Assembly (NCBI GenBank): GCA_014802435.1 | Contig: JAAVCG010000032.1 | Coordinates: 65,839-129,838, forward strand | Source of the DNA: Bacteroides sp. | GTDB lineage: Bacteria; Bacteroidota; Bacteroidia; Bacteroidales; Muribaculaceae | Length of the DNA: 64,000 nucleotides | Reading direction: 5' to 3' | Shown: piece after piece, positions 3,000 through 20,285 of the stretch | Position numbering within the stretch: the stretch's first letter is position 1 | Layout of the letters: every line of letters starts with the position of its first letter | Translations under genes and position numbers: made by a program | The notes under the pieces: generated by a model | Seen by the model: only the letters and a program-made list of their open reading frames with translations | Told to the model about the DNA's origin: nothing | Database searches by the model: none

Positions 3000-3033
3000 C
3001 CGGGCGTCGCGATCATCTCGTCGCGACGTCCGG
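3000..3033. terminator. GC-rich hairpin between convergent obg and the glycosyltransferase gene (no clear U-tract)
   Basis: ccgggcgtcgcga / tcgcgacgtccgg arms pair at 12 of 13 positions with an 8-nt loop. Confidence 0.45.
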
Positions 3034-3061
3034 TAATTCATCTATTCTCAGAGATTCGTAT

Positions 3062-3838
3062 TCAGACCCAGGGCCATGAAGCTATGTATTCCATTAGATC
3101 AGGTGCTGACATGGCACAAACTCTGCAATATTCACGTTTCGTTTTCAATACTAACGGAGAATAAGAGTTTGAGCTATTGATACCCCTGGGATGGTTCAGA
3201 TGAAATATTTTACCCATGATTCTCTTGGGCTTATGACCTAAAATATCAAGTCGGTGTTCTCTTTCAAAATCTTCCGGACCCCATCCCGGGAAATTCTCGT
3301 TCTCCCAACCGACTGTTTTATATCGGTTAACATTTACTAAGTATGCGCCTCCAACAGATATAAAACCAAACATTAGCTGCTGATTTCCGTCTATGGCTTC
3401 AAATATCTTAGGGTTGAGTCTCTGACGGAAAATATTTGACATATAAGCATCGCAGCCAATGAATCGGCCATCATAAGGGAATACCATGATTTCATCCGAA
3501 AACAAGAGTAGTTTATTTGCTCGGATGAGTTGATTTTTCGGGACTATTACGTCAGAGTCTATTACGGCCGCATTTTGAGTTTTTACTCTGCGAAATTCTT
3601 CATTTATGTAATGGGTCCGATGGAAAATCGGGTTTTCATCCTGAATAAAAATATAGTCAACTTCCGGGAACTCAGTTCGCATTATTTCGCGTAATTTTGG
3701 CTTTGAGTCCGCTTCAAGGAGGACAGTCGGCGCACCTTGTGTTAGCTCTCTGTAATAACTCAGAGTCGCCTTGACGTTTTCAAATCGAGTTTCCGAGTCA
3801 ATTCTGACAGTAAATATTATAGTTAAGTCTTTAATCAT
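3062..3838 (-). CDS. GT-A fold glycosyltransferase (galactosyltransferase-like)
   Basis: Likely start is MIKDLTIIFTVR at 3838, overlapping the upstream stop by 8 nt. It has a DxD-like IDSDVIV and FPGWGPEDFE, which resembles the WGxED motif of GT2/GT7-type enzymes. The gene is AT-rich. Confidence 0.7.
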   Translation of the reverse strand: MIKDLTIIFTVRIDSETRFENVKATLSYYRELTQGAPTVLLEADSKPKLREIMRTEFPEVDYIFIQDENPIFHRTHYINEEFRRVKTQNAAVIDSDVIVPKNQLIRANKLLLFSDEIMVFPYDGRFIGCDAYMSNIFRQRLNPKIFEAIDGNQQLMFGFISVGGAYLVNVNRYKTVGWENENFPGWGPEDFEREHRLDILGHKPKRIMGKIFHLNHPRGINSSNSYSPLVLKTKREYCRVCAMSAPDLMEYIASWPWV

Positions 3839-4733
3839 CGTAGAGTAATTTATCAAGGCCAAGGGCGAATCCAACTAATTGTGAAGACGAACAATTTGAA
3901 TTTGAGATCAGACCTATAAAGTCATGACACAATTTTTTGCAAAATGTAAATACTGACAAGAAGAATTCTTTTGAATCATAGCAAATCGAGAGTCTCCCGG
4001 CATCATTGAGTAAATTTAGTAGTGTCTCTGTGTTGACTTCGTTAGGATCAATACTTACTTCTCTGCTGCATTGCAAGTCAAGCATGATGATGTCTTGCAG
4101 ATAAGAATGAGTACGGTCAAATGGCGCCATTTTAACCATTTCTTTAATTTGTTTTGCCTTGTGAGGATAGACTCCATGTTTTTCTGCTAACGCAGCAAAC
4201 GCTCCAATGCTATGTAGAATGCCGGCTGTCAATTCCGTAGGAGAGTAGACGGAGGGAATGGAAGTTGTCAATATTTTCTCACAATCGCATAGCCGAAAAA
4301 TAATTTGTTCCTCCAAAACATAACGTTCTATTGTATCTTCATCTGTGTTCAGTAGAGACATCATAACAACCCCAAACGGATAAAATCGGTCTCTTAAATC
4401 AAGCTGGATTGGTGCATTGACAAAGTATGTGCTGTTTTTCTTTATGATATTATAAGCCATGTGCAACAGTCCTTCAGGCTTCTCCAGTATTTCTTCCTTA
4501 ATTAATCTGGCAAGAAGTAAGAGAAACGCCATATCACCTCCCAATAGTCCCATAGGAAGATCCCGATACTCTCTGGTTAATCTATGCAACTGTTTTACGG
4601 CATAGTCAGGAGGATTAACTGCTGAATCATTATTAGCATATTCTTTTAGTCTGAAATATATTAGTCCAAGATCAATCATAGGGGACTGATATTTTGTTAA
4701 AAGCTTTAGGATAATAGAGAGAAGATGTTTCAT
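3831..4733 (-). CDS. Helical-repeat protein of unknown function with LanC-like G-x-x-x-G-x-x-G repeat signatures
   Basis: 300-aa ORF whose ATG overlaps the OMP stop (TAATG). Repeat motifs are GLLGGDMAFLLLLA, TAGILHSIGAFAALA and LVGFALGL. No CHG or WCxG zinc-ligand motifs are present. Confidence 0.6.
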   Translation of the reverse strand: MKHLLSIILKLLTKYQSPMIDLGLIYFRLKEYANNDSAVNPPDYAVKQLHRLTREYRDLPMGLLGGDMAFLLLLARLIKEEILEKPEGLLHMAYNIIKKNSTYFVNAPIQLDLRDRFYPFGVVMMSLLNTDEDTIERYVLEEQIIFRLCDCEKILTTSIPSVYSPTELTAGILHSIGAFAALAEKHGVYPHKAKQIKEMVKMAPFDRTHSYLQDIIMLDLQCSREVSIDPNEVNTETLLNLLNDAGRLSICYDSKEFFLSVFTFCKKLCHDFIGLISNSNCSSSQLVGFALGLDKLLYDD

Positions 4734-7681
4734 TATTGAGGTAAATGTTTTGGTTGCTTATTGATTCGGTATTGAATATGGAAAAGAACATACGAGGGAA
4801 TAACGTTACTTATGGTTTCAGTGCGCGCTTCCGATGTAATCCTATACGAGATTCCTGTCAGCTGTTGAAGGATATCATATGCGTCAATTGTGAATGTCAA
4901 TACTCCATTCATAATAGACTTACTGAGGCGTGCATTCCAAATCCAGTCTTTTCTATTGATGAGAGTATTCAGGTATCCATCACGATATTCCAATGACAGA
5001 TCTGTTGACAAGCTCCAGTTATTCGGTAGATTTAAAAAAGAGGATATCGTGCTTTTATATTGACGAGTGTGGTAGTTTATTATTCCATTAATTTTATCTC
5101 CATTTTTGTCTGAGGCTATATCCGCTTTGGTTATCCATTCGAATCTCATGTTTTTATTGGCCCAAGAGAGACCAAATTCTCCATCCACTTTATGGCGAGT
5201 ATCTTCCCTCATGAAGGTTCTATTCTCGAGTAAGACACTGGCATACCCGAGATTACGAGACGCCCCTATCCCGGCAGATAATTGAAAAGGCCCGTTGCGT
5301 CTGAAGGTGGTGGAAAAACCGTAATGGATGTTTCCGGACCATGAGCCGGTTTTATTTACATATTGAATGACCTGTAAACCTGTCGTTTCGTTGAATTCAG
5401 AAGCCTGGATTATTGTACGGAAATCGTGGTCGTAGGATATATATATGTCATGCCTTGTTACCTGTTGATAGTTATATTCCGTTTGAAATTGAGCAAATGC
5501 TGCCATGGTGGGTTTAAGATTGGTGTTGCCTATTTCTATAAGCAAAGGATTGATTATCGGGCGTGAAATCATCTGAAGATAGTTTGGAGAAGATGTATCC
5601 AATCCTGTCCTAAATGTTATTTCTGTAGAAGACCGGCTTACACCCGGATTTGCCCTTGATAGCGTAATTTCGGCATCAGCAGATGGTAAGATAAACTTTT
5701 TATGAATATTCTCTTGTTGACCATATTCAAAAATTGAGAAGTTGTTCTCATTAAATTTTATCACTGCATTGACTTTGAATTGATACTTCAAGTTAGGGCT
5801 ATTGCGAATTGAAGTAGTATGTTTGATAACGGATGCTTGCAGGGTGTGATTATTATTCAGAATTAGATTTTGTCTGCTTCTATCCAAGTTTAATATGCCA
5901 ATATTAAAGACCTCATATGTGTCCTTATCTTTTAAGCTATGAAAGGTATATTTTAGTGGAATTGACAAGTTCTTATTCGGGTAATATTTAGTGAGAGTTG
6001 CAAATGTTGTCCAATTCGCTGAGTATGTTGGCTTTTGATTTATTTTATCGTTAGCTTGACTGGAAGTGTCTTCCATTGGATATCTTATAAATGAATCGTT
6101 TAGGCCATGAAAAAATCTCCACGTATTTGATGTATTTAATCTTAATGTTAGTGATAGCGGATTCGTCCCTCCATGTAATTTTATCATACTCTCGATAAAA
6201 ATCCATAGGAAAGCACGGTGTCCTTGATTAGAAATGTTTTGTTTTCGTAGATTAAGTGTGTTAGAATTTTCAGACTCGGATTCTAAAAGTGAGTCTTCAA
6301 TATATTTTGCTGAAATATCTTTGCGTTCGGAATTAAATATTCCGGACAGCAAGTTTGTTTTTGTATTGATATTGGAAAAATCAAATGAAATGAAACCCTC
6401 GAGATTGGCTTTAGAGTCAAATCTATAATTGAATTTATTCCAAGTCTTTATTGAAAGAGCCTTATGAGTTGAAGATTTGAATGAATATTCAAAATTATTT
6501 GAACTGCCTAATAAATTCTGCCGCATGGTTTTGTCATGATATAACTCTTTTGAATTTTCAGCTTCTAAACTTCCCTTTAATTCCCATACTGATTCGGATG
6601 TGGATAGATTATAGTTTAAGCCTCCTCCGTAGCGTCGGGTAACACCAAGGCCCATTTTCTCAATTGACCATGCACCGTCATTCTTTCCCGGAGGAGTCGC
6701 ATCGCTTAGGTTATTGGTATTCATGTAAGCTGAACAACCGAGATTCTTGGTAAATCCCATCCCAAATAACTTGCCGAGAAATCTATTATGGGTGCCATAT
6801 CCGGCATTTACGTTGGCAAACCATCCGTAAGAATACTCCCTTTTTAACTTTACATCCATTACCAGTTGAGAGTCGTTAATCACATCTTTCCCCAATAGAG
6901 AAGCCATTTTCCCCTCTTTTGAGTAACACTGAATCTCTTTTACTGTATAAGCGCCAAGATTCTCCAATGCAAGGGTATTTTTCCCGTTAAAAAGATCTCT
7001 ACCATTTATCAGTAGAGTTCCAACCGGCTTATTATTTACAGTAATCTGACCTCCGGGGTTTAATTTTACCCCCGGCATTTGCCGGAGCAAAGCGTCTAAC
7101 ATTGACCCGTCTGCCGTGATAAATGCATCCGCATTATATACTAATGTGTCACCCTTATGATAAAACTTTACAACTGATGCTGTTACTTCTATCTCCTTTA
7201 ATTGCTTTGATTTACGCTTATTCAATACTGCGTCGGGCAATCTGTAATCCTTACCTGCTGTCTTTAAATCTTTGTGTGAAACTTTTATCCATACCGGTTC
7301 ATAGTCTTCTGCTAAAACATAACTCCCGGCAGCTGGATTTCCATTGTTCTTGTGATAGCCTTCAACCTTAAACATATAATATGAAGGTTTTATTTTTATT
7401 TCACCTCCAAAGTATTTCATTCCCTTCTCGATTATTGGAGTGAACAACTCTCCATCAAATATCAGAGAATCTTCCTCTCCGGGGATCGCGATTGAATCAC
7501 ATAAGTAAACCGTAATCAATCCCTGAGAAAAAGATTCCTTTGTTACGCCGTTAAGCACACGCCCTTTGACAAAAATAATCTTCCCATCATTCCAGTCTTG
7601 ACAAATCGAAATGATTGAAATGAATAAAAAGCATATTGTAATGCAATAGCGTTTAATAATATGATTGAGTAGTAAATCCAT
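4733..7681 (-). CDS. Outer-membrane plug + beta-barrel protein (TonB-dependent-receptor-like, with an N-terminal carboxypeptidase-regulatory-like domain)
   Basis: It has a signal-like N-terminus (the ATG at 7681 is preferred over the TTG at 7687). Plug-like region: DGSMLDALLRQMPGVKLNPGGQITVNNKP..LLINGRDLF. A long alternating beta-strand region ends in an aromatic-rich C-terminus. Confidence 0.8.
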   Translation of the reverse strand: MDLLLNHIIKRYCITICFLFISIISICQDWNDGKIIFVKGRVLNGVTKESFSQGLITVYLCDSIAIPGEEDSLIFDGELFTPIIEKGMKYFGGEIKIKPSYYMFKVEGYHKNNGNPAAGSYVLAEDYEPVWIKVSHKDLKTAGKDYRLPDAVLNKRKSKQLKEIEVTASVVKFYHKGDTLVYNADAFITADGSMLDALLRQMPGVKLNPGGQITVNNKPVGTLLINGRDLFNGKNTLALENLGAYTVKEIQCYSKEGKMASLLGKDVINDSQLVMDVKLKREYSYGWFANVNAGYGTHNRFLGKLFGMGFTKNLGCSAYMNTNNLSDATPPGKNDGAWSIEKMGLGVTRRYGGGLNYNLSTSESVWELKGSLEAENSKELYHDKTMRQNLLGSSNNFEYSFKSSTHKALSIKTWNKFNYRFDSKANLEGFISFDFSNINTKTNLLSGIFNSERKDISAKYIEDSLLESESENSNTLNLRKQNISNQGHRAFLWIFIESMIKLHGGTNPLSLTLRLNTSNTWRFFHGLNDSFIRYPMEDTSSQANDKINQKPTYSANWTTFATLTKYYPNKNLSIPLKYTFHSLKDKDTYEVFNIGILNLDRSRQNLILNNNHTLQASVIKHTTSIRNSPNLKYQFKVNAVIKFNENNFSIFEYGQQENIHKKFILPSADAEITLSRANPGVSRSSTEITFRTGLDTSSPNYLQMISRPIINPLLIEIGNTNLKPTMAAFAQFQTEYNYQQVTRHDIYISYDHDFRTIIQASEFNETTGLQVIQYVNKTGSWSGNIHYGFSTTFRRNGPFQLSAGIGASRNLGYASVLLENRTFMREDTRHKVDGEFGLSWANKNMRFEWITKADIASDKNGDKINGIINYHTRQYKSTISSFLNLPNNWSLSTDLSLEYRDGYLNTLINRKDWIWNARLSKSIMNGVLTFTIDAYDILQQLTGISYRITSEARTETISNVIPSYVLFHIQYRINKQPKHLPQ

Positions 7682-7779
7682 ATGCAAAATTAATAAAAAA
7701 AATTGGGCAATTCGCGGTTTTAATAGTGAATTAACTTTTTTTTAACTGTAAATATTTGCATATTTTTAATTTTGATTCG

Positions 7780-7787
7780 TACATTTG
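7780..7787 (+). promoter_or_regulatory. Candidate Bacteroidetes -7 promoter box (TACATTTG) for the precursor operon
   Basis: Matches TAnnTTTG and lies 26 nt upstream of the ATG at 7814, inside the 126-bp divergent intergenic region. Confidence 0.4.
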
Positions 7788-7813
7788 CGCAGAATTTATA
7801 ATAAACTGTAATT

Positions 7814-8293
7814 ATGAAACATGCAAAAATTTCCCTTTCGACTCTAAGCGATGACGAGATGCGTTCAGATGTGGCTATGCCTCGAGGTAATACTTCCGAT
7901 TACCTAAAAAAGCATCTGAATATTACGGAGGCTGGTTCTTCTGACGAGCGGTGCTTTGCGTCTTTGGTGTGCCCTCCTGGAGATGGAACAAATGGTACTG
8001 TCCAATGCAGTGGCGCTGCAGGGTCGTGTGAGGGATATACTTCCAGTGGCATTTATGTGGGAGTAAAATGTGGTGATTATTCTGAAGAGTGCTCTAAAGC
8101 TGTTTTTCAAGGGTGGGATTGCTCTGAAGTATATGATGAACTGGAAGACAAGGAGAAAGCTTGTTGCAATAAGGAGGTGTCGGATTCATGTGAATACATG
8201 TATCATACGCTCTCCGGTCAGTCGGGATACGTACGAGGCTGGTGTAAATATAGATTCGCTGCACCAGGGCTATATTGCTCTGAAACTCGTTAA
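7814..8293 (+). CDS. Cysteine-rich (12 Cys) precursor-like protein with a hydrophilic leader and no Sec signal
   Basis: The N-terminus MKHAKISLSTLSDDEMRSDVAMPRG resembles Bacteroidetes LSxxEMxxIxGG-type leaders. All 12 Cys lie between residues 47 and 155. It is the first gene of an operon with an oxidoreductase fusion. Confidence 0.7.
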   Translation: MKHAKISLSTLSDDEMRSDVAMPRGNTSDYLKKHLNITEAGSSDERCFASLVCPPGDGTNGTVQCSGAAGSCEGYTSSGIYVGVKCGDYSEECSKAVFQGWDCSEVYDELEDKEKACCNKEVSDSCEYMYHTLSGQSGYVRGWCKYRFAAPGLYCSETR

Positions 8294-8360
8294 CTATACT
8301 AATTGATCTTTTGGCAGGACTTTATTAATTCAAATAGTATTGTTAAGCCTATTCGATTAA

Positions 8361-9932
8361 TTGAATTGCTATGAATGCGATATGTACTCATTTATTACCC
8401 TTATTCTTTCTAATATAGGTGTTAAGTTTTCACATCAGACTCTTAAACACTTATTTGAAACTCGTTTCTTTGATAATAGTTTGTATTCAATTGCTCAAAT
8501 TCTTTCAAAGTACAATGTCGCCTCAGTCGGAGTACGATTTAGTAAAGAATCAGTTGTTGAAGATGAGTATTGTCCATTCGTAGCTCAAATCGGAGGTTTG
8601 TGGACTTTGGTAACACGCGTGTCTAATGATTCGGTGTTCTACTATGATGCCATACATCCGGCAAAAGAGAATAAAATCTCCAAAGATATCTTTATCGGTC
8701 AGAGTAATGGAAAGGCATTATTAGTCTTGCCTGATAGGTATTCAGGTGAGCTGAATTATGTACATAATCATCTTTGTATTATTAAAGACAGAATAAAGAA
8801 AATTGTCATTTTCAGCATGGGAATTATTTTGGTTTCTTTGGGACTGTTAAAGAATCCGTTGACTGTTAAATGGTCGTATTATGCTCTTCTGGCTCTTAAT
8901 ATTCTTGGATTAGTAATTTGCTTTTTATTATTACAAAAGCAATTGAATATTTCTAATAGATTTACGGATAAATTATGTTCGTTTATTAACGATAATCATT
9001 GTGATTCGGTTACTGATTCTGCCGCTGCCTCGGTTTTGGGGATGGTTAAGTTGAGTGAGATTGGCTTCGGATTTTTTACTGTCAACTTGGTAGTCCTATT
9101 ATTTGTTCCTCAAGTTATTCCTTGGCTCGCAGTATTTTCTGTATGTGTGTTGCCTTTCTCGTTTTGGAGTATCTGGTATCAACGATATCGTGTAAAAAGT
9201 TGGTGTACTTTATGTCTGATTGTGTTAGCCGTAATGTGGATTCAATCCTGTTGTTATTTTGTCGCAGGATTTCTTTCTCAATTAGCAAGCGAATCATTAA
9301 TTGATGGTATCAATTGTTTTGTTGGGTATGTATTTGTTGTGCTGATGATTAATTATTGTATGCAAGTAATTGAGAAATCAAAAAATGCTGATTATTGGAA
9401 GCAGAGGTATGAAAGTATTAAGTCTGTTCCGACTGTCATAGACGCATTTATGGGGCTGGAGAATGGTTATGATATATCGCCGAATGTTTGTTCTGCAATG
9501 ATTTTCGGAGACCCGGATGCTGAACGTACGATTACTGTATTCAGTAACCCATATTGTGGGCCATGTGGGCAATTGCACAATATAATTAAGGATTTCCCTG
9601 GTGGATGTGTAAAGATTCAATATGTTATGACTTATTTTAGTGAAGATAAATCAGCCGTGAATAAGGCTATTATTGCAGCATATAGTCAACTCGGATGGGA
9701 AAAGACTTGGGAGATAATGACTGAATGGTATAAGTCAGACAAGAAGGATGGTGTAAAATTTTTTGAACGATTTGGTCTCAATATGGATAGGTCTGATATT
9801 GAAAAAGAGTTTAAGAAGCAGAAAGAATGGCCTATGGGGAAGAATTTTAGAGGAACCCCTACTATCCTTGTTAACGGAAGAGAACTTCAAGGTCCGTATA
9901 CGATTGAAGATTATTTTTATTTACCGAGATGA
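8361..9932 (+). CDS. Tri-domain fusion: C39-peptidase-like domain (probably non-catalytic) + VKOR membrane oxidoreductase + thioredoxin/DsbA-like domain
   Basis: It has VKOR loop cysteines CSFINDNHC (residues 206 and 214). The CXXC motif WCTLC (282-285) sits at the start of a transmembrane helix. A thioredoxin YCGPC motif (399-402) and a cis-Pro loop RGTPT are present. The N-terminal ~135 aa are C39-like (LYSIAQILSKYN.., YYDAIHP). The start is ambiguous between TTG 8361 and ATG 8382. Confidence 0.85.
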   Translation: MNCYECDMYSFITLILSNIGVKFSHQTLKHLFETRFFDNSLYSIAQILSKYNVASVGVRFSKESVVEDEYCPFVAQIGGLWTLVTRVSNDSVFYYDAIHPAKENKISKDIFIGQSNGKALLVLPDRYSGELNYVHNHLCIIKDRIKKIVIFSMGIILVSLGLLKNPLTVKWSYYALLALNILGLVICFLLLQKQLNISNRFTDKLCSFINDNHCDSVTDSAAASVLGMVKLSEIGFGFFTVNLVVLLFVPQVIPWLAVFSVCVLPFSFWSIWYQRYRVKSWCTLCLIVLAVMWIQSCCYFVAGFLSQLASESLIDGINCFVGYVFVVLMINYCMQVIEKSKNADYWKQRYESIKSVPTVIDAFMGLENGYDISPNVCSAMIFGDPDAERTITVFSNPYCGPCGQLHNIIKDFPGGCVKIQYVMTYFSEDKSAVNKAIIAAYSQLGWEKTWEIMTEWYKSDKKDGVKFFERFGLNMDRSDIEKEFKKQKEWPMGKNFRGTPTILVNGRELQGPYTIEDYFYLPR

Positions 9933-10600
9933 GTCTCCGAATACGACAAAGAAACTTAATAAACAAACTAGTCTTTCACGCCCTGGATTCACCTTATGCT
10001 TTGGGACTTTTTCATGGGCAAATGGGGATTTTAATTGTTGTTGCTCATTGTAGTAAGCAGTGGGGCTTATCTGAATTAGAGTGTGTTGCAGATTTTTTGT
10101 TTGAGCATATTCGGTTGAACACTAGAAGGGTTGATAAGATTGGATTATCTACGGGCTTGTCGGGTATATGTTGGGGTGTAGAGTACTTGGTTCAGCATGG
10201 TATAATGCCAGGACCGGCAGATGATATTTGTGAGGAAGTGGATGGTAAAATTATGCAGACAGACGTGAGACGCATTGACGATTTTAGTTTAGCAACGGGG
10301 TTAAATGGACTATGGCTTTATGTTAAGGCTCGTATTCAGGGAAATTTGGTTGCGGGATTGCCTTTGCCGTTTGATTTTGTGTATCTAAATGATTGGCAGA
10401 ATGTTTTGACGCAGAATAAGGAACATTTTCCGGTAGATGCTGCGCAGTGGCTCATGGATGCCCGAAAAGGGAGAATTACACCATATGAGCTTAGGTTGCC
10501 CCCGTTTATTCGTCCCATGAGGTGTTGCCCTCAGACCGATTTATCATTGTCGGAAGGTCTTGCCGGATATATTGCATTTCATTATCTGCACGAAATATGA
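9929..10600 (+). CDS. LanC-like helical-repeat protein (about half the length of LanC, no zinc ligands)
   Basis: ATGA overlap with the upstream gene. Four repeats spaced ~48-85 aa apart: GLFHGQMGI, GLSTGLSGICWG, SLATGLNGLW and SLSEGLAGYI. Confidence 0.65.
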   Translation: MSLRIRQRNLINKLVFHALDSPYALGLFHGQMGILIVVAHCSKQWGLSELECVADFLFEHIRLNTRRVDKIGLSTGLSGICWGVEYLVQHGIMPGPADDICEEVDGKIMQTDVRRIDDFSLATGLNGLWLYVKARIQGNLVAGLPLPFDFVYLNDWQNVLTQNKEHFPVDAAQWLMDARKGRITPYELRLPPFIRPMRCCPQTDLSLSEGLAGYIAFHYLHEI

Positions 10601-11823
10601 AACACGTTATTTTTGTTGATGAATATAATAGTTCAATTCAAAACGGTATAGGAACTTTTCGAGATCAGTTGCTTCCTCGTTTAGGTACTTCTTCCGGAAT
10701 TAAGACAACACTGATTTCTCTTAACTCAATGGAATCAGATGTGAAGCGAAGGAAGACTTTGTTTGGAAATGAGCTTAGAATACCTATGGTTAATTCCGGC
10801 AATTGGCGCGGTATTGGAGGGCTAATCTGTCCTGTTCGGAGGACTTATATTCCAGATAGAGATTGGAATGTCTTTATACTGAATCATTCACCTTGTTCAA
10901 ATTTCATTAAGTCGCTTCGGGAGTCATTTCCAAAATCAAAAATTATTTTTGTTATTCATGATCAAGGATGGTGTGCTCCACTGTTGGGAAGCGTCAGTCT
11001 TTTGAAAGATATTCTCTTGAAAAAAATTATTCCTAAAGGGTTTTCGCGTGAGGTTATTAGTCACGTTGTTGAATCCTATAAGGAGGAAGTAGAGATTTAT
11101 TCGAATGTTGATTACATAGTATGCATATCTCGCTCAACTTTTAAGATAGTAGCAGAGGTATATGGCATTAATGAGGCAAAATTACGCCTGATACCTAATG
11201 GATTGGACGCCGATGGATTGTCATTGGAAAATAAGTTGGCTATCCGAAAGAGTCTTGGAATAATGTCACATGAGAAATTAATCATATTCTCCGGGCGTCC
11301 GGCCCGTTATAAAGGGATTGAGCCCATGTTAATAGCTTTTGAGCGTTTACAGAATACAATTCCTGATATAAGGCTCGTTATTTGTGGGAGTTTGGACGGA
11401 TTTGGTAAGTTTAGCCGATTACTTGAGCCCATAGCGTCTCGTGTAACATTTACGGGATTGTTGTCTCAAGAAAAATTGGCTGAATGGTATAAAGCATCTG
11501 ATGTCGGGCTTTTGCCTTCTTATAGCGAACAATTTGGTTATTCTGCCTTTGAAATGATAAAGTATGGGCTACCCATAGTCGTATCAGATGGTAATGGTCT
11601 TCGCGATTTGTTTACTGATGGGGTTAATGCTTTGGTTGCTCAAATTGGTAATGTGATTGATTCAAGTGGTTTTGTCAAGTCTTTAACTCAATCTTTGGAG
11701 ACAGTCTTGACTATGTCTCCTCTACAATTGAGAGGAATCCAAGATGAAGCGAGGGAGCTCTTGACCTATTATTCCACAGAAAATATGGTGCAAAAATATC
11801 TACAAGTTATAAGAGAGAAATAG
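10597..11823 (+). CDS. Glycosyltransferase family 4 (GT-B, Glycos_transf_1-type)
   Basis: ATG at 10597 overlaps the upstream stop (ATGA). The C-terminal half reads FSGRPARYKGIEP...LLPSYSEQFGYSAFEMIKYGLPIVVSDGNG, with the E-x7-E region typical of GT4. Confidence 0.85.
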   Translation: MKHVIFVDEYNSSIQNGIGTFRDQLLPRLGTSSGIKTTLISLNSMESDVKRRKTLFGNELRIPMVNSGNWRGIGGLICPVRRTYIPDRDWNVFILNHSPCSNFIKSLRESFPKSKIIFVIHDQGWCAPLLGSVSLLKDILLKKIIPKGFSREVISHVVESYKEEVEIYSNVDYIVCISRSTFKIVAEVYGINEAKLRLIPNGLDADGLSLENKLAIRKSLGIMSHEKLIIFSGRPARYKGIEPMLIAFERLQNTIPDIRLVICGSLDGFGKFSRLLEPIASRVTFTGLLSQEKLAEWYKASDVGLLPSYSEQFGYSAFEMIKYGLPIVVSDGNGLRDLFTDGVNALVAQIGNVIDSSGFVKSLTQSLETVLTMSPLQLRGIQDEARELLTYYSTENMVQKYLQVIREK

Positions 11824-11826
11824 TAA

Positions 11827-11859
11827 AGAAAGAGTCCGACGCTGAGCCGGACTCTTTCT
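11827..11859. terminator. Hairpin between convergent GT4 and GH31 genes
   Basis: agaaagagtccg / cggactctttct form a perfect 12-bp stem with a 9-nt loop. Confidence 0.6.
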
Positions 11860-11877
11860 GATTATTTGGCCTTTTGG

Positions 11878-14800
11878 TTATTTGGTTTGGAGGAGCTTGT
11901 TGACCAGGATGGGGCCTTGCATCGTCGGGGCGGAGGTGCGGGCCTTGACGCGGAAGCGGATGGTCAGCAGCGCGCCGGAGCCGTTGACGTCAGGTTTGTC
12001 GCCAATGGTGACAAACGTCGGGTAGAGGACCTTGTCGCCTGAGGTGTGGAGGCGGTCATAGGTCAGGTTCTCCATGTTGGCGAGCAGTTCTGAGGGCTCG
12101 ATGCCAAGGTATTCAATCACTGCCGGGTCATAAGGAATGGCCAGCGAGAAAGCCGCGAGGGCTTGCAGGTCTTGGCCGCTGAGGGTCAGTACCATCTCTT
12201 CACCGGGAGCATAGCTCTTCTTGGAGGATTCAAGGCTCAAGGTGCCTTCAATCGGCTTGATGTTCCATGGGGATTCGATTCCGCCATCGAGCTTGACGGC
12301 TACGTTGGCAATATCAAAGGCGTCGATGAGGCCGTTGCGGTTCACATCGCCCATGCTGACGTAGTCAAAGTCGCCGTCGCCCATGCGCAGACCCGTATAG
12401 TTGGTGTAAGAGGTCAGGTCATTGGAGTCGATTTTGCCGTCTTTGTTGATGTCGCCGGGAATGAATGAGGGTGAGCCGGGAACCTTGAAGACGAAGAATT
12501 CGCGTCCGGAGCCGAAGTTGCCGACGGCTTTGTCAACGTGAAGGCGGATATAGCGCGCCATCGGTTGCCCCTCAAGGGTGATGACCTTGGTGGAGTTATC
12601 GCGAACCCACTGGAAGGGGATTGCGGGGCTCCAGTCTGAGGCATTTTCTGAGAGTTCGATGGTGCCTTCAAGGAGCGTTCCGTTGCCGGCGTTGGTGCGG
12701 GGAAGATATTCCAGACGGTCAAGGGTATTAAATGAGCCGAGGTCCATGACGATGTCCAGCGGCAGGGCGTCTTCGCCATACTTGGTGTGCCAGAGTTCGC
12801 GGTCGTCATGGTCAAAGAGGCGGCTGATGCGTGCGCCTCCCTGGTCAGGGGCTGAGGATGTGGCCGTGATGCCGCTGATGGCAAATTCAAGGGGATTATC
12901 GGCCGTGGTGACGTTGATGGTGGTCCAATCGGAGGCGCCGGCGGGGTTGAGGGCGCGGAGTTTGAACTCATAGGCCGTCTTGGGCTGGAGGTCCTCAATG
13001 AGGAGGGTATTGAAGCCTTCGGCGGTGCCTAAGTTGGTGTATAGCATGCCGTTGAAGAGCATTTCCAGTGATGAGGCATCATTCATCGGGGCCCAGCGCA
13101 GATTGACGGCATATGGCTGAATATCAGCCTCATCGAGTTCCACTTGAGGAGCTTCCGGAGCCGTCAGCGCGAGGCTCGCGGGCATGGCGGCTTGCGGATT
13201 CAGCTCAAAGCCCTTGACTACGCAGCCAACGGCAGTTTCCGTCACTGTCACGGTCGGGAGCTTCACCAGGAGCTGAGGAATGGACGAGGCGGCCTCGTCG
13301 ATGCCCCATTGACCCAGGCGGTTAGCTGAATCGTCAATCATCCATGCGGCATCGTTGGCCTCAAATTCGCTGCGAGTGGAAGCATGGGTGAGCTTCAGCT
13401 TCTTGCCGCCAAGGAGGCCGTAAACTTCCTTGGGTTCAGAGGTGATATTGATGCGCAGTTCGGTTGATTTCTTGTCGGTCATCCCCTGGAATGAACCGAT
13501 AGTGGGGTCAATGGTAACGGTCAGGACGCCCTTATCGGAGAGGTCTGAGGTGATTTTGGTCGTTGCATATTGGCCGAGGCGATAGGCTTCAGTGGTGCCG
13601 TCATCGTCATATTCGGTGATTTCAGACTTGCCCGCGGGCCAGAGCTCATAGATGCGCTCCCAGGATTTGATCTGACTCGGGTTATTGTTCGGATTAACCA
13701 TCGGAATGATGGCGCCGGCCTTGACAAACACCGGGAGCTTCCATAGCGGAGCGTCGAAATTATTCAGGATAATGTCGGCCTCCGGATTGCCATAAGCAAG
13801 GCCGCTGAAATAGTCAAACCATTGTCCGGCGGGAAGATAGATGTTATGGCGCACGTCGTTGCCGGCCTCATCGGAGCGAGTGGGCTGATAAATCGGCGCA
13901 ACGAGCATCGACGGGCCGTAGAGGAACTGATAGCGTGAAGCCGTCCCGTGAGTGTAATCATTAGGATAGTCCAGGAACATGGCGCGAATCATCGGCTGTC
14001 CGTCGATGGCCTCGCGCGCTGCCGTATAGGCATAAGGCATCAGCTCTGACTTGAGCTTGAGGTAGGCGCGGTTAATCCTTTCGGCGTCTTCGCCAAGCTG
14101 ATGGGGATACTTGGGGTTGGCGCCCCAGCCGTCCATATTGAGCTGCATCGGGGTGAACGTTTTCCATTGATAGTCACGGATATTGACGGGGATGTTGCGG
14201 CCGCCGAAAATGCCGTCCATGTCTGAGCTGATGTTCGGCTGACCGGAAAGGCCCGAGCCGATATACGTCGGGATATGGAAGCGGATGTACTCCCATTCGC
14301 CGCCCGTCTGGTCGCCGGTCCAGATTCCTGCATAGCGCTGAGTTCCGGCCCAGCCGTCGAGCGAGATGATGAACGGACGCGCGTCGTTGCCATAGTAAGG
14401 CATGATTTCGCCTACGTCGGCAACTCCGTTAAGGCCAAAGGAATAGCCTGCGCCAACCCAGGCCACGTCGGTCTTCAGAACCCTGACGCCCGCATCGCGT
14501 ACTTCCTTGACGATGTCGCGCTGAAGCAGCGGCTCAACGCCCTCCCTGGGATGGAGCGCGCTCTGAGTCCAGAGGCCGATTTCAACGCCATGTTGCCGCG
14601 CATAATCGCCATATTGACGCAGATTTTCTATATTGCCGTCAAGGCTCGACGTCTGACCATAGCCTGCGCCATAACCATCATTGGGCAATACCCAGCCCAG
14701 GGGCATATCCTTGGCGTTATAACGGTCAATGACGGCGCGTGCCGAGAATTGATAATTGCCCGGAAGCTCGCCGTTGAGGCTCTCCTTGATGCCGCCGTTA

Positions 14801-15678
14801 TCGGTCTGACTTTCTTTATATTTCTTGCCATCCTCAAAGAGAATGCCGTTTTCATCTTCCTTCCAGTAGTCGCGGTTATAGGCGTTCAGATGCCCCTCAT
14901 AGAAACCAAACTTGGGAAGCAGCACGGGATTGCCCGTAAGCTGATAAAAATCATTCAGCAGGCCGACGGGTGTCTCGTCAACCATGATAAATACGTCGAG
15001 ATAAGGCGCGTTATGGCTCAGTGATACCGTGCCCGGCTCTGAGGCACCGAAATCATAGGCTCCGGGCGCAAACGTGTGCCACATCAGGCCGTAACCGTCA
15101 GTCGACCAGTAGAAAGGAGTCGGTGAGGCCACTCCGCCGTCGGTCCATGAATTGGTGTTGACAATGTCAATCAGCTGCCCTTTATGAGAAAAACGGCCGT
15201 TTTGAACTCCGCCGCCATAGAAATATTCGCCCGGATTCTCGCGAAATTGGAGAGTGGTCTTCTTTCCTTCAATTTTGATGGGCGAAACGGTCTGAGCCAC
15301 TTGCTTTCCCGTCCGGAGGTCAGTAACGGTAAACGTCTCGCCCTCAGCCGGAAAATCGATGCTGATTCGTGAAGTCTCAACTCTTACCGAGCCGTCGGCA
15401 TTGTTCTTGACAATGACTGCTCCTGACTCCTTGCGGGGATTATCAACAAGGATTTGAGCCTCCGGACTCGCCTCCGGATTGCGCGGAAGTCCTCCCTGAG
15501 GGTCTGAAAACAGACGGAATACGTTAGGCCCGTAAAAGTCAATAAGCAAGGGAAGTTTTTCCGCCCCTAAATTAACCTCGACGGAATGAGGATTCAAGCG
15601 CAAGGCCGTCGCGGCCGATAGCCCCAACGGAGCCGCAGCGACGACTGCCGCCAGAATAGAAAATTTTAACTTAATCAT
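11878..15678 (-). CDS. Secreted multidomain glycoside hydrolase family 31 protein with FN3, F5/8 type C (discoidin), dockerin-like and cohesin-like C-terminal modules
   Basis: Signal peptide MIKLKFSILAAVVAAAPLGLSA. GH31-type WTGDQTG and KTDVAW catalytic-region motifs. An FN3-like segment. A discoidin-like segment (..RYIRLHV..). Dockerin repeats GDINKDGKIDSND and GDVNRNGLIDAFD. Confidence 0.8.
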   Translation of the reverse strand: MIKLKFSILAAVVAAAPLGLSAATALRLNPHSVEVNLGAEKLPLLIDFYGPNVFRLFSDPQGGLPRNPEASPEAQILVDNPRKESGAVIVKNNADGSVRVETSRISIDFPAEGETFTVTDLRTGKQVAQTVSPIKIEGKKTTLQFRENPGEYFYGGGVQNGRFSHKGQLIDIVNTNSWTDGGVASPTPFYWSTDGYGLMWHTFAPGAYDFGASEPGTVSLSHNAPYLDVFIMVDETPVGLLNDFYQLTGNPVLLPKFGFYEGHLNAYNRDYWKEDENGILFEDGKKYKESQTDNGGIKESLNGELPGNYQFSARAVIDRYNAKDMPLGWVLPNDGYGAGYGQTSSLDGNIENLRQYGDYARQHGVEIGLWTQSALHPREGVEPLLQRDIVKEVRDAGVRVLKTDVAWVGAGYSFGLNGVADVGEIMPYYGNDARPFIISLDGWAGTQRYAGIWTGDQTGGEWEYIRFHIPTYIGSGLSGQPNISSDMDGIFGGRNIPVNIRDYQWKTFTPMQLNMDGWGANPKYPHQLGEDAERINRAYLKLKSELMPYAYTAAREAIDGQPMIRAMFLDYPNDYTHGTASRYQFLYGPSMLVAPIYQPTRSDEAGNDVRHNIYLPAGQWFDYFSGLAYGNPEADIILNNFDAPLWKLPVFVKAGAIIPMVNPNNNPSQIKSWERIYELWPAGKSEITEYDDDGTTEAYRLGQYATTKITSDLSDKGVLTVTIDPTIGSFQGMTDKKSTELRINITSEPKEVYGLLGGKKLKLTHASTRSEFEANDAAWMIDDSANRLGQWGIDEAASSIPQLLVKLPTVTVTETAVGCVVKGFELNPQAAMPASLALTAPEAPQVELDEADIQPYAVNLRWAPMNDASSLEMLFNGMLYTNLGTAEGFNTLLIEDLQPKTAYEFKLRALNPAGASDWTTINVTTADNPLEFAISGITATSSAPDQGGARISRLFDHDDRELWHTKYGEDALPLDIVMDLGSFNTLDRLEYLPRTNAGNGTLLEGTIELSENASDWSPAIPFQWVRDNSTKVITLEGQPMARYIRLHVDKAVGNFGSGREFFVFKVPGSPSFIPGDINKDGKIDSNDLTSYTNYTGLRMGDGDFDYVSMGDVNRNGLIDAFDIANVAVKLDGGIESPWNIKPIEGTLSLESSKKSYAPGEEMVLTLSGQDLQALAAFSLAIPYDPAVIEYLGIEPSELLANMENLTYDRLHTSGDKVLYPTFVTIGDKPDVNGSGALLTIRFRVKARTSAPTMQGPILVNKLLQTK

Positions 15679-15721: not shown

Positions 15722-15729
15722 CAAAGTTA
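15722..15729 (-). promoter_or_regulatory. Candidate -7 box (TAACTTTG on the minus strand) for the GH31 gene
   Basis: CAAAGTTA on the plus strand, ~44 nt upstream of the ATG at 15678. Confidence 0.45.
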
Positions 15730-15758
15730 ACCAAAATCCCCGATATTTCCAAATCCGA

Positions 15759-18342: not shown

Positions 18343-18374
18343 GCAAAGTTACAAATTTTCCCCGACATACGCAA
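18343..18374 (-). repeat. Direct-repeat copy A (32 nt) containing the rpsA -7 promoter box
   Basis: gcaaagttacaaattttccCcgacatacgcaa. CAAAGTTA at 18344-18351 is TAACTTTG on the minus strand. It matches 19114-19145 at 31 of 32 positions. Confidence 0.8.
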
Positions 18375-18399
18375 ATATCCCCCATGAATTTTTTTTGTT

Positions 18400-18954
18400 T
18401 CAGGCATTTATAGTAAATTCTCCCATGTAGGTTTCGTTAATTCGCTGCTCTATTTTATTTAAAGTGATTTTTCCGCTGTTCAGCTGTTTTCGGTTTACCA
18501 TTAAATAGAACTTGTTACTTATGTCCGCGCAATGAAGAAAAACGTTATCACCAAATAATCGGAGCATAAGCTTTTTGTAGAATCCGAATCGGCGATTACC
18601 ATTGGGCACCGGTTTGTCAACAATGTCTTTTGCCAAATCCGGAGCCGCAATGAACCCGAATGAAGAGAATTCGTTACGTCGAAAATAGTCCAGCATTATC
18701 TCAATGCATGAGCGGATTATTCTTCTTGGCTCATAGTCATTGGTCAGGAGCGAATATCTGTTTTTACTTTTTTCAACTCCTTTCCAGTAGAATTTAAGTC
18801 CGTAAAATTCATGTTCATAACCCTCAACTTCTACGATATATCTTTTTTTACTCCGAGAAGATTTAAATGCCCAGATATCAGTAATGCGGGGAGACCCGTG
18901 GGTCTTCTTCCGCATTACAAAATGAGGGATATAAAATTCAGTCGTGGAGCTCAC
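18400..18954 (-). CDS. Hypothetical protein (no family recognised)
   Basis: 184-aa AT-rich ORF. The GTG start at 18954 overlaps the upstream small ORF stop; an alternative ATG is at 18915. Confidence 0.55.
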   Translation of the reverse strand: MSSTTEFYIPHFVMRKKTHGSPRITDIWAFKSSRSKKRYIVEVEGYEHEFYGLKFYWKGVEKSKNRYSLLTNDYEPRRIIRSCIEIMLDYFRRNEFSSFGFIAAPDLAKDIVDKPVPNGNRRFGFYKKLMLRLFGDNVFLHCADISNKFYLMVNRKQLNSGKITLNKIEQRINETYMGEFTINA

Positions 18955-19082
18955 GGCAGAATGTATTCATAAGTGGAGGTTCGAGCGGAAGCTTTTTCTT
19001 CGGTCGATATAGCACGCAGACGAATCGTTGGGGTCTGTCCGTCCTCAATACTGAGATTCAAAGGTTTCTGTAACTGTGCCAT
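18951..19082 (-). CDS. Small hypothetical ORF (43 aa)
   Basis: ATG at 19082 lies 33 nt downstream of the -7 box in repeat copy B. Its stop overlaps the start of the next ORF (GTGA). No homology is recognised. Confidence 0.3.
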   Translation of the reverse strand: MAQLQKPLNLSIEDGQTPTIRLRAISTEEKASARTSTYEYILP

Positions 19083-19113
19083 AGGATAAACTGATTGAAT
19101 TAATAATCTATTT

Positions 19114-19145
19114 GCAAAGTTACAAATTTTCCGCGACATACGCAA
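19114..19145 (-). repeat. Direct-repeat copy B (32 nt) containing a -7 promoter box
   Basis: gcaaagttacaaattttccGcgacatacgcaa, with CAAAGTTA at 19115-19122. Similarity to copy A continues more weakly for ~20 nt further. Confidence 0.8.
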
Positions 19146-19178
19146 GCCCCGTCCGGAAATTTTTATACCGTTTGCCAT

Positions 19179-19721
19179 TCATTTCATTTGGACAAGATTT
19201 TGAATTATGTCATCGTATATTTTGATGACATGGCGAATATCAAATTCTTGTTCTGCTTTTTTTCGGCTATATTTGCCGAATTCGTTTCTTTGCTCTGGAC
19301 TAAGATTTATGAACTGAGTTATGGATTGGATTAATGACTCTGCATTGGCAGGCTGACATAGAAAACCATTCTTTCCAGGTTCAACCATTTCTCTGCATCC
19401 GGGGATATCTGAGGTTATTATTGGCTTACTCATTGCGAGTGCTTCCATTAGGGTTCTGGACATTCCTTCGTGGTAAGAGGGTAAAACAATGCAGTCAGCA
19501 TTTCTAATATATGGTCTAACATCCAAGGACTCCCCTAAATATTTGAAACTGCTGTTTACTTCATCATATTTTATTTGAGGCAGGGAAACATGGTTTGGGT
19601 AACTCTCGTCAATTGGGCCAAGCCAATGGAAGTCCGCGAGATTTTTTAGTTTTTCAGATGCTTTGATGTACTCAGAGTATCCCTTATCGTAAAGGACTCT
19701 ACCAATAACAAGGAAAACCAT
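19179..19721 (-). CDS. GT4 glycosyltransferase, C-terminal (Glycos_transf_1) half only
   Basis: MVFLVIGRVLYDKGY... VLPSYHEGMSRTLMEALAMSKPIITSDIPGCREMVEPGKNGF. It starts 1 nt after the stop of the N-terminal-half ORF, in a different frame. Confidence 0.8.
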   Translation of the reverse strand: MVFLVIGRVLYDKGYSEYIKASEKLKNLADFHWLGPIDESYPNHVSLPQIKYDEVNSSFKYLGESLDVRPYIRNADCIVLPSYHEGMSRTLMEALAMSKPIITSDIPGCREMVEPGKNGFLCQPANAESLIQSITQFINLSPEQRNEFGKYSRKKAEQEFDIRHVIKIYDDIIQNLVQMK

Positions 19722-19722
19722 A

Positions 19723-20256
19723 TTATAAATATTTGTTTAGATTTACACCTTCACCTCCGGGTAGCAAGATGAGTTTTTCTTTTGATACTATGTTAAGGTT
19801 TAATAGGGTGTTAAAGTTATGTTGATTCAGTGTGATTATTTTATCAGTGAACTTTAGCCCTATTTTATATAGAGAGCGTGCAACTTTGCTTTTTAAATTG
19901 TTATGATTGAATACATAACCTAATCCTGTAACTATTGCTACGCTTTTTATTTTGCAAATCCGAGCGGCAATTGAACCGTAGATATTGGGCTTGATGGTAT
20001 AGTGAAAAACTATGTCGGGCCGAATTTTATAATAGATATTTTGTAGAAACAATAAATATTTTAAATCTTGAATAGGATTAGTTCCTCCTCGATCTAAGGA
20101 CGATTCAATAAGTATGCATCCTTCAGGGATTGAGACATTTGTATTTTTTGGCGCTATGAGAAATACGGAATGTCCCAATGAAACAAAATGGCGTATAATC
20201 TCGCCTCGGAAGTTTAGCAATTCCTTTAGTGAGTTATCACAGAATACGATTTTCAT
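19723..20256 (-). CDS. GT4 glycosyltransferase, N-terminal half only
   Basis: MKIVFCDNS...GHSVFLIAP...LLPGGEGVNLNKYL*. Together with 19179-19721 the total is 357 aa, a normal full-length GT4. Confidence 0.7.
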   Translation of the reverse strand: MKIVFCDNSLKELLNFRGEIIRHFVSLGHSVFLIAPKNTNVSIPEGCILIESSLDRGGTNPIQDLKYLLFLQNIYYKIRPDIVFHYTIKPNIYGSIAARICKIKSVAIVTGLGYVFNHNNLKSKVARSLYKIGLKFTDKIITLNQHNFNTLLNLNIVSKEKLILLPGGEGVNLNKYL

Positions 20257-20285
20257 TTGATGACCGGTTATATTTATCGCGCTAT

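Follow-up and report, generated by a model that had tools for sequence, protein, structure and literature searches.

Several bacterial systems place the gene of a leader-bearing precursor beside the genes of the enzymes that modify it. Glycocins, such as sublancin, encoded by sunA-sunT-bdbA-sunS-bdbB, are peptides of about 40–50 amino acids (aa) whose double-glycine (GG) leader is cut by a peptidase-containing ATP-binding cassette transporter (PCAT; here SunT) and which are modified by a GT2 S/O-glycosyltransferase. The bacteroidetocins (class IIf; Coyne et al. 2019) have GG leaders of 15–16 aa, mature peptides of 42–48 aa and two to four cysteines; their clusters carry a PCAT, a protein with five transmembrane (TM) segments and a neighbouring thiol oxidoreductase gene that full toxin activity requires, the reason given being that Bacteroides lacks general disulfide (Dsb) machinery (PMC6671954). 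In this study, we describe a gene for a 159-aa protein with 12 cysteines at positions 7814–8293 of a 64,000-nucleotide (nt) stretch from a Bacteroides sp. assembly (GCA_014802435.1, contig JAAVCG010000032.1; the whole stretch is called the window), together with the gene island around it, and we consider it reasonably probable that this protein is the leader-bearing substrate of a self-contained maturation island and docks on a neighbouring oxidase.

Bacteroidales are dominant in the gut, and how bacteria without general Dsb machinery make disulfide-rich secreted weapons is an open question, to which the locus is a compact candidate answer: an address tag on the substrate, a dead protease domain that would read it and a quinone-linked oxidase tethered to the reader. 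Protease-like domains without catalytic residues are known, as in the C39-like domain (CLD) of HlyB. VKOR-type oxidases that face the cytoplasm have so far been found only as paralogues in a few Crenarchaea, e.g. Aeropyrum pernix (PMC13486548), whose ApVKORi is a crenarchaeal paralogue that forms cytoplasmic disulfides in general (Hatahet and Ruddock 2013; Hibender et al. 2017, via PMC13486548).

The precursor gene and its product

The gene and its promoter occupy the following positions of the window:

7814–8293, + strand: gene of the 159-aa Cys-rich precursor-like protein, defined by translation and the top match of both the leader and the C-module profiles among the window open reading frames (ORFs)
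7755–7787, + strand: Bacteroidetes-type promoter of the precursor gene, with −33 TTTG, a 21-nt spacer and −7 TACATTTG

Translation of 7814–8293 (+) gives the protein quoted in the original prediction, which was made from the DNA letters alone, and its 12 cysteines stand exactly where they had been placed (residues 47, 53, 65, 72, 86, 93, 103, 117, 118, 126, 144 and 155; spacings 5-11-6-13-6-9-13-0-7-17-10). Against a background of 1.18% Cys in 26 large window ORFs, at least 12 cysteines in 159 residues have a chance probability of P = 5e-7, and the position of all 12 after residue 46 one of P = 0.017; the first being Cys47, all lie downstream of the leader, as had been claimed. The N-terminus is likewise hydrophilic, without a Sec-type hydrophobic signal (the Kyte–Doolittle mean over 11 residues reaches at most 0.23 within residues 1–40), and the core was aptly described as Gly/Ser/acidic-rich, having a net charge of −8 and an abundance of G, S, C and E. 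Two N-x-S/T sequons that had been pointed out (NTS, residues 26–28; NIT, residues 36–38) are present, together with a third inside the core (N60-G-T62), but as a feature of the system they are unsupported, for sequons are not enriched among the family precursors (22 observed versus 29.7 expected from shuffles).

The promoter match at 7755–7787 stops 27 nt before the ATG at 7814 and follows the consensus of Bacteroides promoters. TTTG-N19-21-TAnnTTTG is matched 10 times across the window versus 0.59 expected, and a by-eye comparison with the ORF list places several further copies just 5′ of gene starts; because it is enriched and precedes several genes, the pattern is usable as a promoter predictor for this genome. 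Copies elsewhere in the window, where the pattern is about 17-fold over shuffles, include 15722–15753 (−), 18344–18375 (−) and 55536–55567 (+). Downstream of the gene, the intergenic hairpin at 8300–8363 is insignificant as an attenuator (z = −1.5), and a consensus scan found no intrinsic terminator.

Within the assembly collection, 29 blocks record an identical protein (24 contigs read), and at the sites displayed the neighbour genes are identical as well. A variant with 98% identity differs by five synonymous and three non-synonymous changes. The 29 blocks, the changes in the variant and the promoter indicate that the ORF is real and not a chance frame, and the gene looks, on this sequence evidence, expressed and maintained.

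The neighbouring oxidase

The next gene downstream encodes a multidomain membrane protein, referred to below as the oxidase:

8382–9932, + strand: fusion of 516 aa from the ATG at 8382, consisting of a C39-like domain, an extra TM helix, VKOR (four TM segments plus TM5) and a DsbA-like domain

Its ATG lies 89 nt past the precursor stop at 8293. Pfam recognizes VKOR (PF07884; 57.4 bits, cutoff 27.5) and Thioredoxin_4 (31.7 bits), while the Peptidase_C39 match, at 20.9 bits, is under its cutoff of 22. In an alignment of 34 oxidases (29–46% identity), the cysteines of the VKOR loop (C206/C214), of the membrane motif (C282xxC285) and of the partner domain (C399xxC402) are invariant; since all redox cysteines are kept, the protein should form a complete disulfide-generating relay.

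The N-terminal domain is related to the peptidase domain of PCAT1. A profile of the family matches PCAT1 over residues 29–182 (E = 1.7e-9), extending into its first hydrophobic helix, and the catalytic His99 of PCAT1 (‘laHFVV’) is aligned with F or W (‘g.eFviv’), so that the histidine is replaced. A TTG start at 8361 would give 523 aa (MNCYECDM...) with an extra Cys one residue off the C39 catalytic register. As all 33 homologues begin at the equivalent of Met8 (ATG 8382), the extension 8361–8381 is probably untranslated, and the C39-like domain would start after the position of the catalytic Cys. With both catalytic Cys and His missing from the sequence, the domain is predicted to be degenerate, that is, catalytically dead.

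An AlphaFold2 (AF2) model based on the 34-sequence alignment (pLDDT 88, pTM 0.72) has six long helices (133–164, 171–194, 231–248, 250–278, 283–302 and 313–354) between an alpha/beta N-domain and a thioredoxin-fold C-domain. Foldseek matched the N-terminus best to PCAT1 and the C-terminus to Bacillus subtilis BdbD and DsbA proteins. From these domain matches, the oxidase is seen as a dead C39-like domain with one PCAT-derived TM segment grafted onto a VKOR–DsbA oxidase. A set of shorter proteins (P0063–P0107, ~335 aa, mostly from Muribaculaceae) covers only 51–64% of the oxidase query; they seem to combine the C39-like domain with VKOR and to lack the DsbA-like domain, so that their thioredoxin-fold partner would be a protein apart.

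Related loci across Bacteroidales

A single-protein scan of genome representatives found no close oxidase relative, and an alignment-based scan of species-representative genomes found 312. The locus counts given here rest on 80 loci kept from these (numbered with the prefix L), which by title belong to Bacteroidales except for three from Clostridia/Oscillospiraceae and one from Paenibacillus. By eye, about 54 of the 80 have a leader-bearing, Cys-rich small ORF within ~2.3 kb of the oxidase gene, mostly within ~150 nt, the criteria being a K-rich start, the motif [LIV]-[ST]-x-x-[ED]-[MIA]-[KR], no TM segment and 2–17 cysteines.

The precursors fall cleanly into two types that follow the identity of the oxidase to that of the window. 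Oxidases at most 33% identical are accompanied, usually just downstream, by precursors of 57–107 aa with an ...EMKxIxGG leader. Two of these GG-type precursors pass TIGR04149 (25.9 and 33.3 bits, cutoff 25), and one bears the name ‘bacteriocin’ or ‘natural product precursor’ at NCBI and JGI. Oxidases at least 34% identical usually have their precursors just upstream; these keep L-S-x-x-E-M-K, have no GG and are mostly 77–265 aa long, some being mini-precursors of 44–47 aa that end in GACDIRRPxDC. Such minis lie directly upstream of the oxidases in L027 (7894–8037), L033 (502–642), L038 (199–339) and L080 (9841–9975), share the C-terminal single-loop motif G-A-C-D-I-R-[RK]-P-x-D-C-[DE] and, judged from this motif, look like a distinct small-peptide subfamily.

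The two types also differ in their export genes. All-against-all clustering was used to compare PCATs and GG loci, and these PCATs carry LSAGQ; PCAT genes with an intact ‘QLDxMDCGPxC’ occur in 14 of the 32 GG-type loci and in none of the 24 non-GG loci (Fisher P = 1e-4, in a test that treats related loci, including the near-identical L028–L032, and short contigs as independent), and HlyD-like genes in 13 of 32 and 0 of 24, respectively. In the clade of the window, including the four closest relatives of the oxidase retrieved from metagenomes, a cassette recurs that encodes an outer-membrane barrel, the precursor, the oxidase, a LanC-like protein and a GT4 glycosyltransferase. The precursor cores are almost wholly different between loci whose oxidases share 35–46% identity. 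As only two relatives were found among 2.9 million viral contigs, the system seems tied to cellular genomes:, it is not generally phage-borne.

Individual loci have further peculiarities. The precursor at 241–774 of L018 reaches 17 cysteines through the (C-G-S-G-T-S-G)n/(C-x-S-G)n repeat at its end, and L084 (6336–9879) has five GG-type precursors in tandem after a homologue of the 258-aa GT-A-like protein of the window. In many precursors of L009–L043 (e.g. L013 5421–6023 and L020 9402–9860), the leader is separated from the Cys modules by long (GS)n or (GSGD)n linkers with weak ‘Serglycin’ Pfam matches, which could serve as flexible tethers or as tracts that the glycosyltransferases of the loci glycosylate.

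Leader, linker and core modules of the precursor

Comparison with these loci divides the precursor into the following parts:

7814–7879, + strand: leader or docking tag, residues 1–22 (MKHAKISLSTLSDDEMRSDVAM), with the motif L11-S-x-x-E15-M16-R17 and no GG
7880–7951, + strand: polar linker, residues 23–46 (PRGNTSDYLKKHLNITEAGSSDER), from comparison with neighbour-encoded precursors
7952–8092, + strand: N-part of the core, residues 47–93, C-x5-C-x11-C-x6-C-x13-KCGD-x4-C
8144–8287, + strand: C-terminal four-Cys module, residues 111–158, A-C-x8-C-x-Y...G-x-C...L-x-C, with C117, C126, C144 and C155

A profile of 22 non-GG leaders, from which the window was left out, gives the window leader 11.7 bits, compared with 10.0 for the best of 2000 shuffles, and among 460 window ORF N-termini it ranks first (12.0 bits, the next 5.3). 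This support for membership of the leader class is modest but consistent. Leaders of double-glycine class II bacteriocins have hydrophobic residues at −4, −7 and −12 from the cleavage site and Glu at −8; in this register, L11, E15 and M16 fit, position −4 is D19, and V20 is one residue off; at the canonical spacing from L11/E15/M16, the position of the GG is taken by A21-M22, and neither GG, GA nor GS occurs nearby. Sequence comparison indicates that the loss of GG is a trait of the whole clade and not peculiar to the window gene. The protein thus remains, as first described, precursor-like, with an N-terminus of the Bacteroidales L-S-x-x-E-M-K-x-I leader class in which GG is lost. The proposed cleavage at PRG|N, in contrast, is unsupported, since PRG is unconserved in the relatives, the GG position is A21-M22 and the island has no active C39 protease or PCAT. 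At the position of the linker, the relatives have GS/GD-rich linkers, which are longer; in the window protein, this segment would act as a tether.

The C-terminal module carries the statistical case for a conserved core. Its profile, built from 20 copies in the precursors of 13 loci, again with the window left out, describes ~45 residues of the form A-C-x-G-K-x-x-G-D-x-C-x-W...G-x-C...L-x-C (for membership, A-C-x(8-9)-C-x-[WYF]); some copies are in tandem, and some lie within GG-type precursors. Residues 111–158 reach 19.6 bits, the best of 2000 composition-matched shuffles 10.7, and all other window ORFs at most 6 bits; C117, C126, C144 and C155 align with the four invariant cysteines (alignment A2). 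A search with this profile of a collection of 5.8 billion proteins gave 17 candidates and two matches, not enough to build an alignment of use.

The evidence for the N-part is of another kind. The same order of six cysteines is found in the precursors of L017, L024, L074, L089 and L095, where it reads C-x3-5-C-x6-7-C-x6-7-C-x13-19-[KR]C-x6-C, the second gap of the window protein being 11 residues. A regular expression for the N-part matches 0.03% of shuffles, with a spacing range that had been widened to include the window, and the profiles are weak or equivocal (14.0 bits versus 10.9 for the best shuffle; 8.9 versus 8.5 after rebuilding on six cysteines). As the rebuilt profile scores close to shuffles, only a pattern-level resemblance in cysteine order is claimed, and BLASTP of the N-part against the precursor of the closest locus, L089, was insignificant. 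C103 and C118, which lie outside both modules, could pair with each other, and 16 of 19 family precursors have an even number of cysteines.

A disulfide-type scaffold, as originally suggested, is supported, and the C-module cysteines are conserved in neighbours of homologous oxidases. Conservation of all 12 cysteines as one unit is not: the full pattern occurs only in the 98% twin, and the C-module alone is statistically established. The core indeed has no obvious internal repeat, and to this description it must be added that it is modular, six ordered cysteines being followed by the four-Cys module.

Searches with the entire protein missed these relationships. Whole-length phmmer against 1.84 billion cluster representatives returned only the 98% twin and one spurious protein, and a word-indexed whole-sequence search nothing beyond the twin; the spurious match (P0002, 796 aa) is a tandem-repeat protein whose score sums six 29-bit stretches. 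The precursor matches no Pfam, NCBIfam, PHROG or PADLOC family, TIGR04149 (curated cutoff 25 bits) leaves it unmatched even at E = 10, none of the precursor cores falls into a Pfam family, and no sequence in the PDB matches the C-module. The result is a large, hypervariable and unannotated Cys-rich family in gut Bacteroidales, which whole-sequence searches miss and whose members are candidates for strain-level antagonism or recognition.

Predicted sidedness of the oxidase

With six TM segments, the C39-like and DsbA-like domains lie on one side of the membrane. On that side, which also holds the CxxC, the mean number of K and R over the 34 sequences is 2.9 before the extra TM segment, 2.9 in loop 3/4 and 3.6 after TM5, loop 3/4, just before the CxxC, having a net charge of +2.9. 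On the opposite side, the means are 0.56 between the extra TM segment and TM1, 0.12 in loop 2/3 and 0.53 in loop 4/5. Solved outward-facing VKORs have the opposite bias, with a positive loop 2/3 and a short loop 3/4 holding zero or one positive residue: human VKORC1 has ‘RTRW’ and ‘YDF’ in these loops, and Synechococcus VKOR ‘PDGLPLVKRWRWP’ and ‘RQF’. Together with the absence of a signal peptide and the homology of the N-module to a cytoplasmic part of PCATs, the charge bias leads to the prediction that the redox face of the oxidase is cytoplasmic and that the protein is an inward-facing VKOR.

TlpA-like lipoproteins (WCxPC) are frequent beside the oxidase cassettes (L013, L014, L016, L023, L024, L034, L045 and others), and the window island itself has none. 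Such neighbours hint at an additional periplasmic thiol-disulfide step.

The island and its surroundings

Seven genes form an island between obg and a glycoside hydrolase family 31 (GH31) gene, and the precursor gene is the first of those on the + strand. The island is found with the same flanks in L003–L008, and its other parts are as follows:

3001–12000 (genes at ~3.0–11.9 kb), no strand: low-GC island, 36–42% GC, flanks 50–60%
3062–3838, − strand: candidate GT-A-like glycosyltransferase, 258 aa, with weak Glyco_transf_7C (17 bits) and Glyco_tranf_2_3 matches
3831–4679, − strand: 282-aa protein without a family match, from gene calls, with homologues in L010, L021 and L024
4733–7681, − strand: predicted outer-membrane beta-barrel protein, 982 aa, divergent from the precursor gene, the window copy having no profile match
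9929–10600, + strand: soluble protein, 223 aa, LANC_like 19.5 bits, below the cutoff of 23.2
10597–11823, + strand: GT4 glycosyltransferase, 408 aa, Glycos_transf_1 91.9 bits, syntenic in related loci

Its low GC content relative to the flanks makes it probable that the island was acquired horizontally; no repeats flanking it were found. The 258-aa protein has homologues of 52–55% identity in L010, L021 and L024 and, by inspection, a D-S-D motif. The barrel has syntenic homologues in 16 loci, of which that in L089 matches PF14905 (OMP_b-brl_3), and its N-terminus looks like a signal peptide. The 223-aa protein is a conserved oxidase partner, its homologues lying directly 3′ of the oxidase gene in many loci. 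The nearest named family of the GT4 protein is TIGR04157 of the GG-Bacteroidales peptide system (288 bits, cutoff 400). By inspection, the GT4, GT-A-like and LanC-like proteins have no TM segments. None of the seven island proteins has a radical-SAM domain by Pfam or NCBIfam, no active C39 domain or PCAT is encoded in the island or the scanned large window ORFs, and no PADLOC defence model matched.

Around the island, a short tandem repeat of degenerate sequence at the 3′ end of obg (2902–2977) encodes a C-terminal tail that is acidic and rich in Asp, Glu and Phe. The GH31 neighbour (11878–15678, −) is a protein of 1266 aa in which an F5/8 type C domain is joined by weak matches of dockerin and cohesin-like type, an unusual mix among Bacteroidales glycosidases. 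Further on, 18400–30755 (−) is a polysaccharide biosynthesis locus with GT2, an EpsG-like polymerase, Stealth, ATP-grasp, FrhB/Fer4 and a flippase. The stretch at 18–20 kb has 37–41% GC, and a GT4 gene there is split into adjacent ORFs, with its N-terminal half at 19723–20256 and its C-terminal half at 19179–19721, which suggests a frameshift or a pseudogene.

A proposed maturation pathway and its alternatives

In the mechanism that we propose, the amphipathic leader (L11, E15-M16, V20) would dock in the groove of the dead C39-like domain and act as a recognition tag, not as a cleavage site; the loss of the catalytic residues, as in HlyB, suggests substrate binding without cleavage. The flexible linker would let the core reach the tethered DsbA-like domain, by which up to six disulfides could be introduced, and electrons would pass from C399xxC402 of that domain to the VKOR loop (C206/C214), then to C282xxC285 and finally to menaquinone. 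With an inward-facing VKOR, this oxidation would take place at the cytoplasmic side of the membrane. The GT4, GT-A-like and LanC-like proteins could act there too and probably modify or chaperone the same substrate. In GG-type relatives, a PCAT would cut the leader and export the folded peptide. As the clade of the window has neither GG nor PCAT, the leader is probably retained there. The product would leave by a route for which the island has no gene and is probably an extracellular, bacteriocin-like antagonistic or recognition protein, which is the weakest step of the scheme; hypervariable cores and a bacteriocin-type leader favour such a role. The co-inherited outer-membrane barrel may serve passage, immunity or reception.

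In full detail, the reading describes a leader-guided, cytoplasm-facing disulfide machine, in which the VKOR is turned inward by the PCAT-derived dead C39 domain and its TM segment, substrates of up to ~250 aa are folded before export, and the product of the window gene is a six-disulfide, probably glycosylated protein of 12–17 kDa that keeps its leader and leaves by a non-PCAT route. In this complete form, it is put forward only tentatively.

Several points weigh against it. The leader scores only slightly above the best shuffle and has D19 at the usually hydrophobic −4 position; for the N-part of the core, no relative reaches statistical significance; AF2 gave no usable model of the precursor (pLDDT 31.5); and the PCAT comparison of locus types counts related loci separately. 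No inner-membrane exporter for secretion is encoded in the island or the tested rest of the window. The inward topology is predicted from the positive-inside rule and homology, and several related loci encode TlpA-like periplasmic thioredoxin lipoproteins, which show that periplasmic thiol chemistry occurs in the family and would fit an outward-facing oxidase too. Finally, leader–C39 binding, the disulfides, glycosylation, export and activity are all steps that we infer.

The same substrate–oxidase pair could also work with classical sidedness, the precursor leaving with an intact leader through a transporter whose gene lies elsewhere and being oxidized afterwards in the periplasm, as by DsbA/DsbB. 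Nearly all known VKORs face outward (PMC13486548), the TlpA-like neighbours would fit, and, as six TM segments keep both soluble domains on one side, a periplasmic pair is geometrically possible. A 130-residue N-terminal domain would, however, have to cross the membrane without a signal peptide; this module is homologous to the cytoplasmic peptidase domain and TM1 of PCAT1, and the reverse orientation is predicted from the charges of all short loops. In GG loci, moreover, the PCAT would remove the leader on export, which would leave a leader-binding domain in the periplasm without a ligand. We regard this arrangement as unlikely, though deserving of attention.

A non-toxin is a less probable product still. 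It would be a secreted, disulfide-stabilized binding protein, such as a metal or nutrient scavenger, an adhesin or a signal, with the barrel as its receptor, in the manner of a hemophore or chalkophore. The divergent PF14905-family barrel gene beside the precursor in 16 loci, the acidic, Cys-rich core and the lack of a recognizable immunity gene agree with it, and barrel co-inheritance may leave room for a receptor-linked function. The extent of core divergence at 35–46% oxidase identity, however, fits conflict or recognition proteins better than scavengers, the presence of a dedicated oxidase speaks for cysteines in disulfide bonds and against metal ligands, and many loci have no barrel.

The original prediction, a double-glycine-type bacteriocin with PRG|N in place of GG, a leader (residues 1–25) cut by a C39 protease and N-glycosylation at NTS and NIT, now appears very improbable. 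It rightly drew on the L-S-x-x-E-M resemblance of the leader, the island has glycosyltransferase genes, and the GG-type relatives include members of TIGR04149, one of them named ‘bacteriocin’ by NCBI. Against this stand the lack of an active C39 domain or PCAT in the island and tested window, the absence of PCAT genes from the 24 non-GG loci, the unconserved PRG with A21-M22 at the GG position, the lack of sequon enrichment over shuffles and the failure of TIGR04149 to match the window protein. That the ORF is spurious or decaying in AT-rich acquired DNA, its cysteines accidental, could be argued from the single whole-length homologue and the absence of any named family, and is scarcely credible given the cysteine content, the promoter of its own, the significant C-module match, the identical copies and the changes in the only variant, and the dozens of loci in which functionally analogous ORFs stand at the syntenic position.

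If, as proposed, the oxidase faces inward, the locus would be a natural bacterial case of disulfide formation in the cytoplasm, directly useful for producing disulfide-rich proteins; such formation has hitherto been known only from the crenarchaeal VKOR paralogue and engineered Escherichia coli strains. Disulfide installation would then be a leader-dependent, RiPP-style tailoring reaction (RiPP, ribosomally synthesized and post-translationally modified peptide), and the oxidase the first inward-facing VKOR in bacteria.

Comparison with known systems

Systems of this kind, in which a dedicated oxidoreductase accompanies a leader-tagged, Cys-containing peptide of Bacteroidetes, are already known. 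The present variant is undescribed in the literature searched, combining large modular cores, the loss of GG and PCAT, a dead C39–VKOR–DsbA fusion, a predicted inward orientation, glycosyltransferases and a barrel; for C39/VKOR fusions in Bacteroides, these searches returned nothing. The finding is more interesting for this context than for the ORF alone.

With the GG-Bacteroidales RiPP system (TIGR04149/TIGR04157/TIGR04148), the locus shares the leader class, with its K-rich start and L-S-x-x-E-M-K-x-I; the GT4 protein of the window is closest to TIGR04157, and distant oxidase homologues adjoin true TIGR04149 members. Unlike these RiPPs, the window protein has no GG and no TIGR04149 match, its core is three to four times longer, the island has no radical-SAM gene (TIGR04148), the GT4 protein stays under the TIGR04157 cutoff of 400, and the defining chemistry would be disulfide formation by the VKOR/DsbA fusion.

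Like the bacteroidetocins, the window precursor is a Bacteroidetes Cys protein with a hydrophilic leader and an adjacent thiol oxidoreductase gene, a likeness in the kind of gene. By analogy, the bacteroidetocin oxidoreductase data are the only experimental anchor for the oxidase role proposed here. The window differs in having no GG, PCAT or five-TM gene and a core of ~115 aa with 12 cysteines, and its island adds glycosyltransferases and an outer-membrane barrel.

The glycocins resemble the locus in uniting a leader-bearing precursor, thiol-disulfide oxidoreductases and glycosyltransferases; the best structural match of the DsbA-like domain is B. subtilis BdbD, and the core contains C-x6-C pairs (C65-C72 and C86-C93). 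Glycocins have two nested disulfides formed by paired C-x6-C motifs, whereas the window protein has 12 cysteines in a core of ~115 aa, no PCAT, and a GT4 with a sub-threshold GT-A protein by which glycosylation is predicted.

The N-domain of the oxidase is homologous to the peptidase domain of PCAT1 (PDB 4RY2, 6V9Z; E = 1.7e-9, top Foldseek match). In contrast to HlyB and PCAT1, it is fused to a VKOR/DsbA relay and not to an ABC transporter, and its partner peptide is tagged by a leader at the N-terminus instead of an RTX signal at the C-terminus. Should the topology prediction hold, the VKOR redox cysteines face the cytoplasm, as in ApVKORi; in contrast to the archaeal protein, the inversion would be achieved in a bacterium through a PCAT-derived domain and one TM segment, and would serve a single class of leader-tagged substrates.

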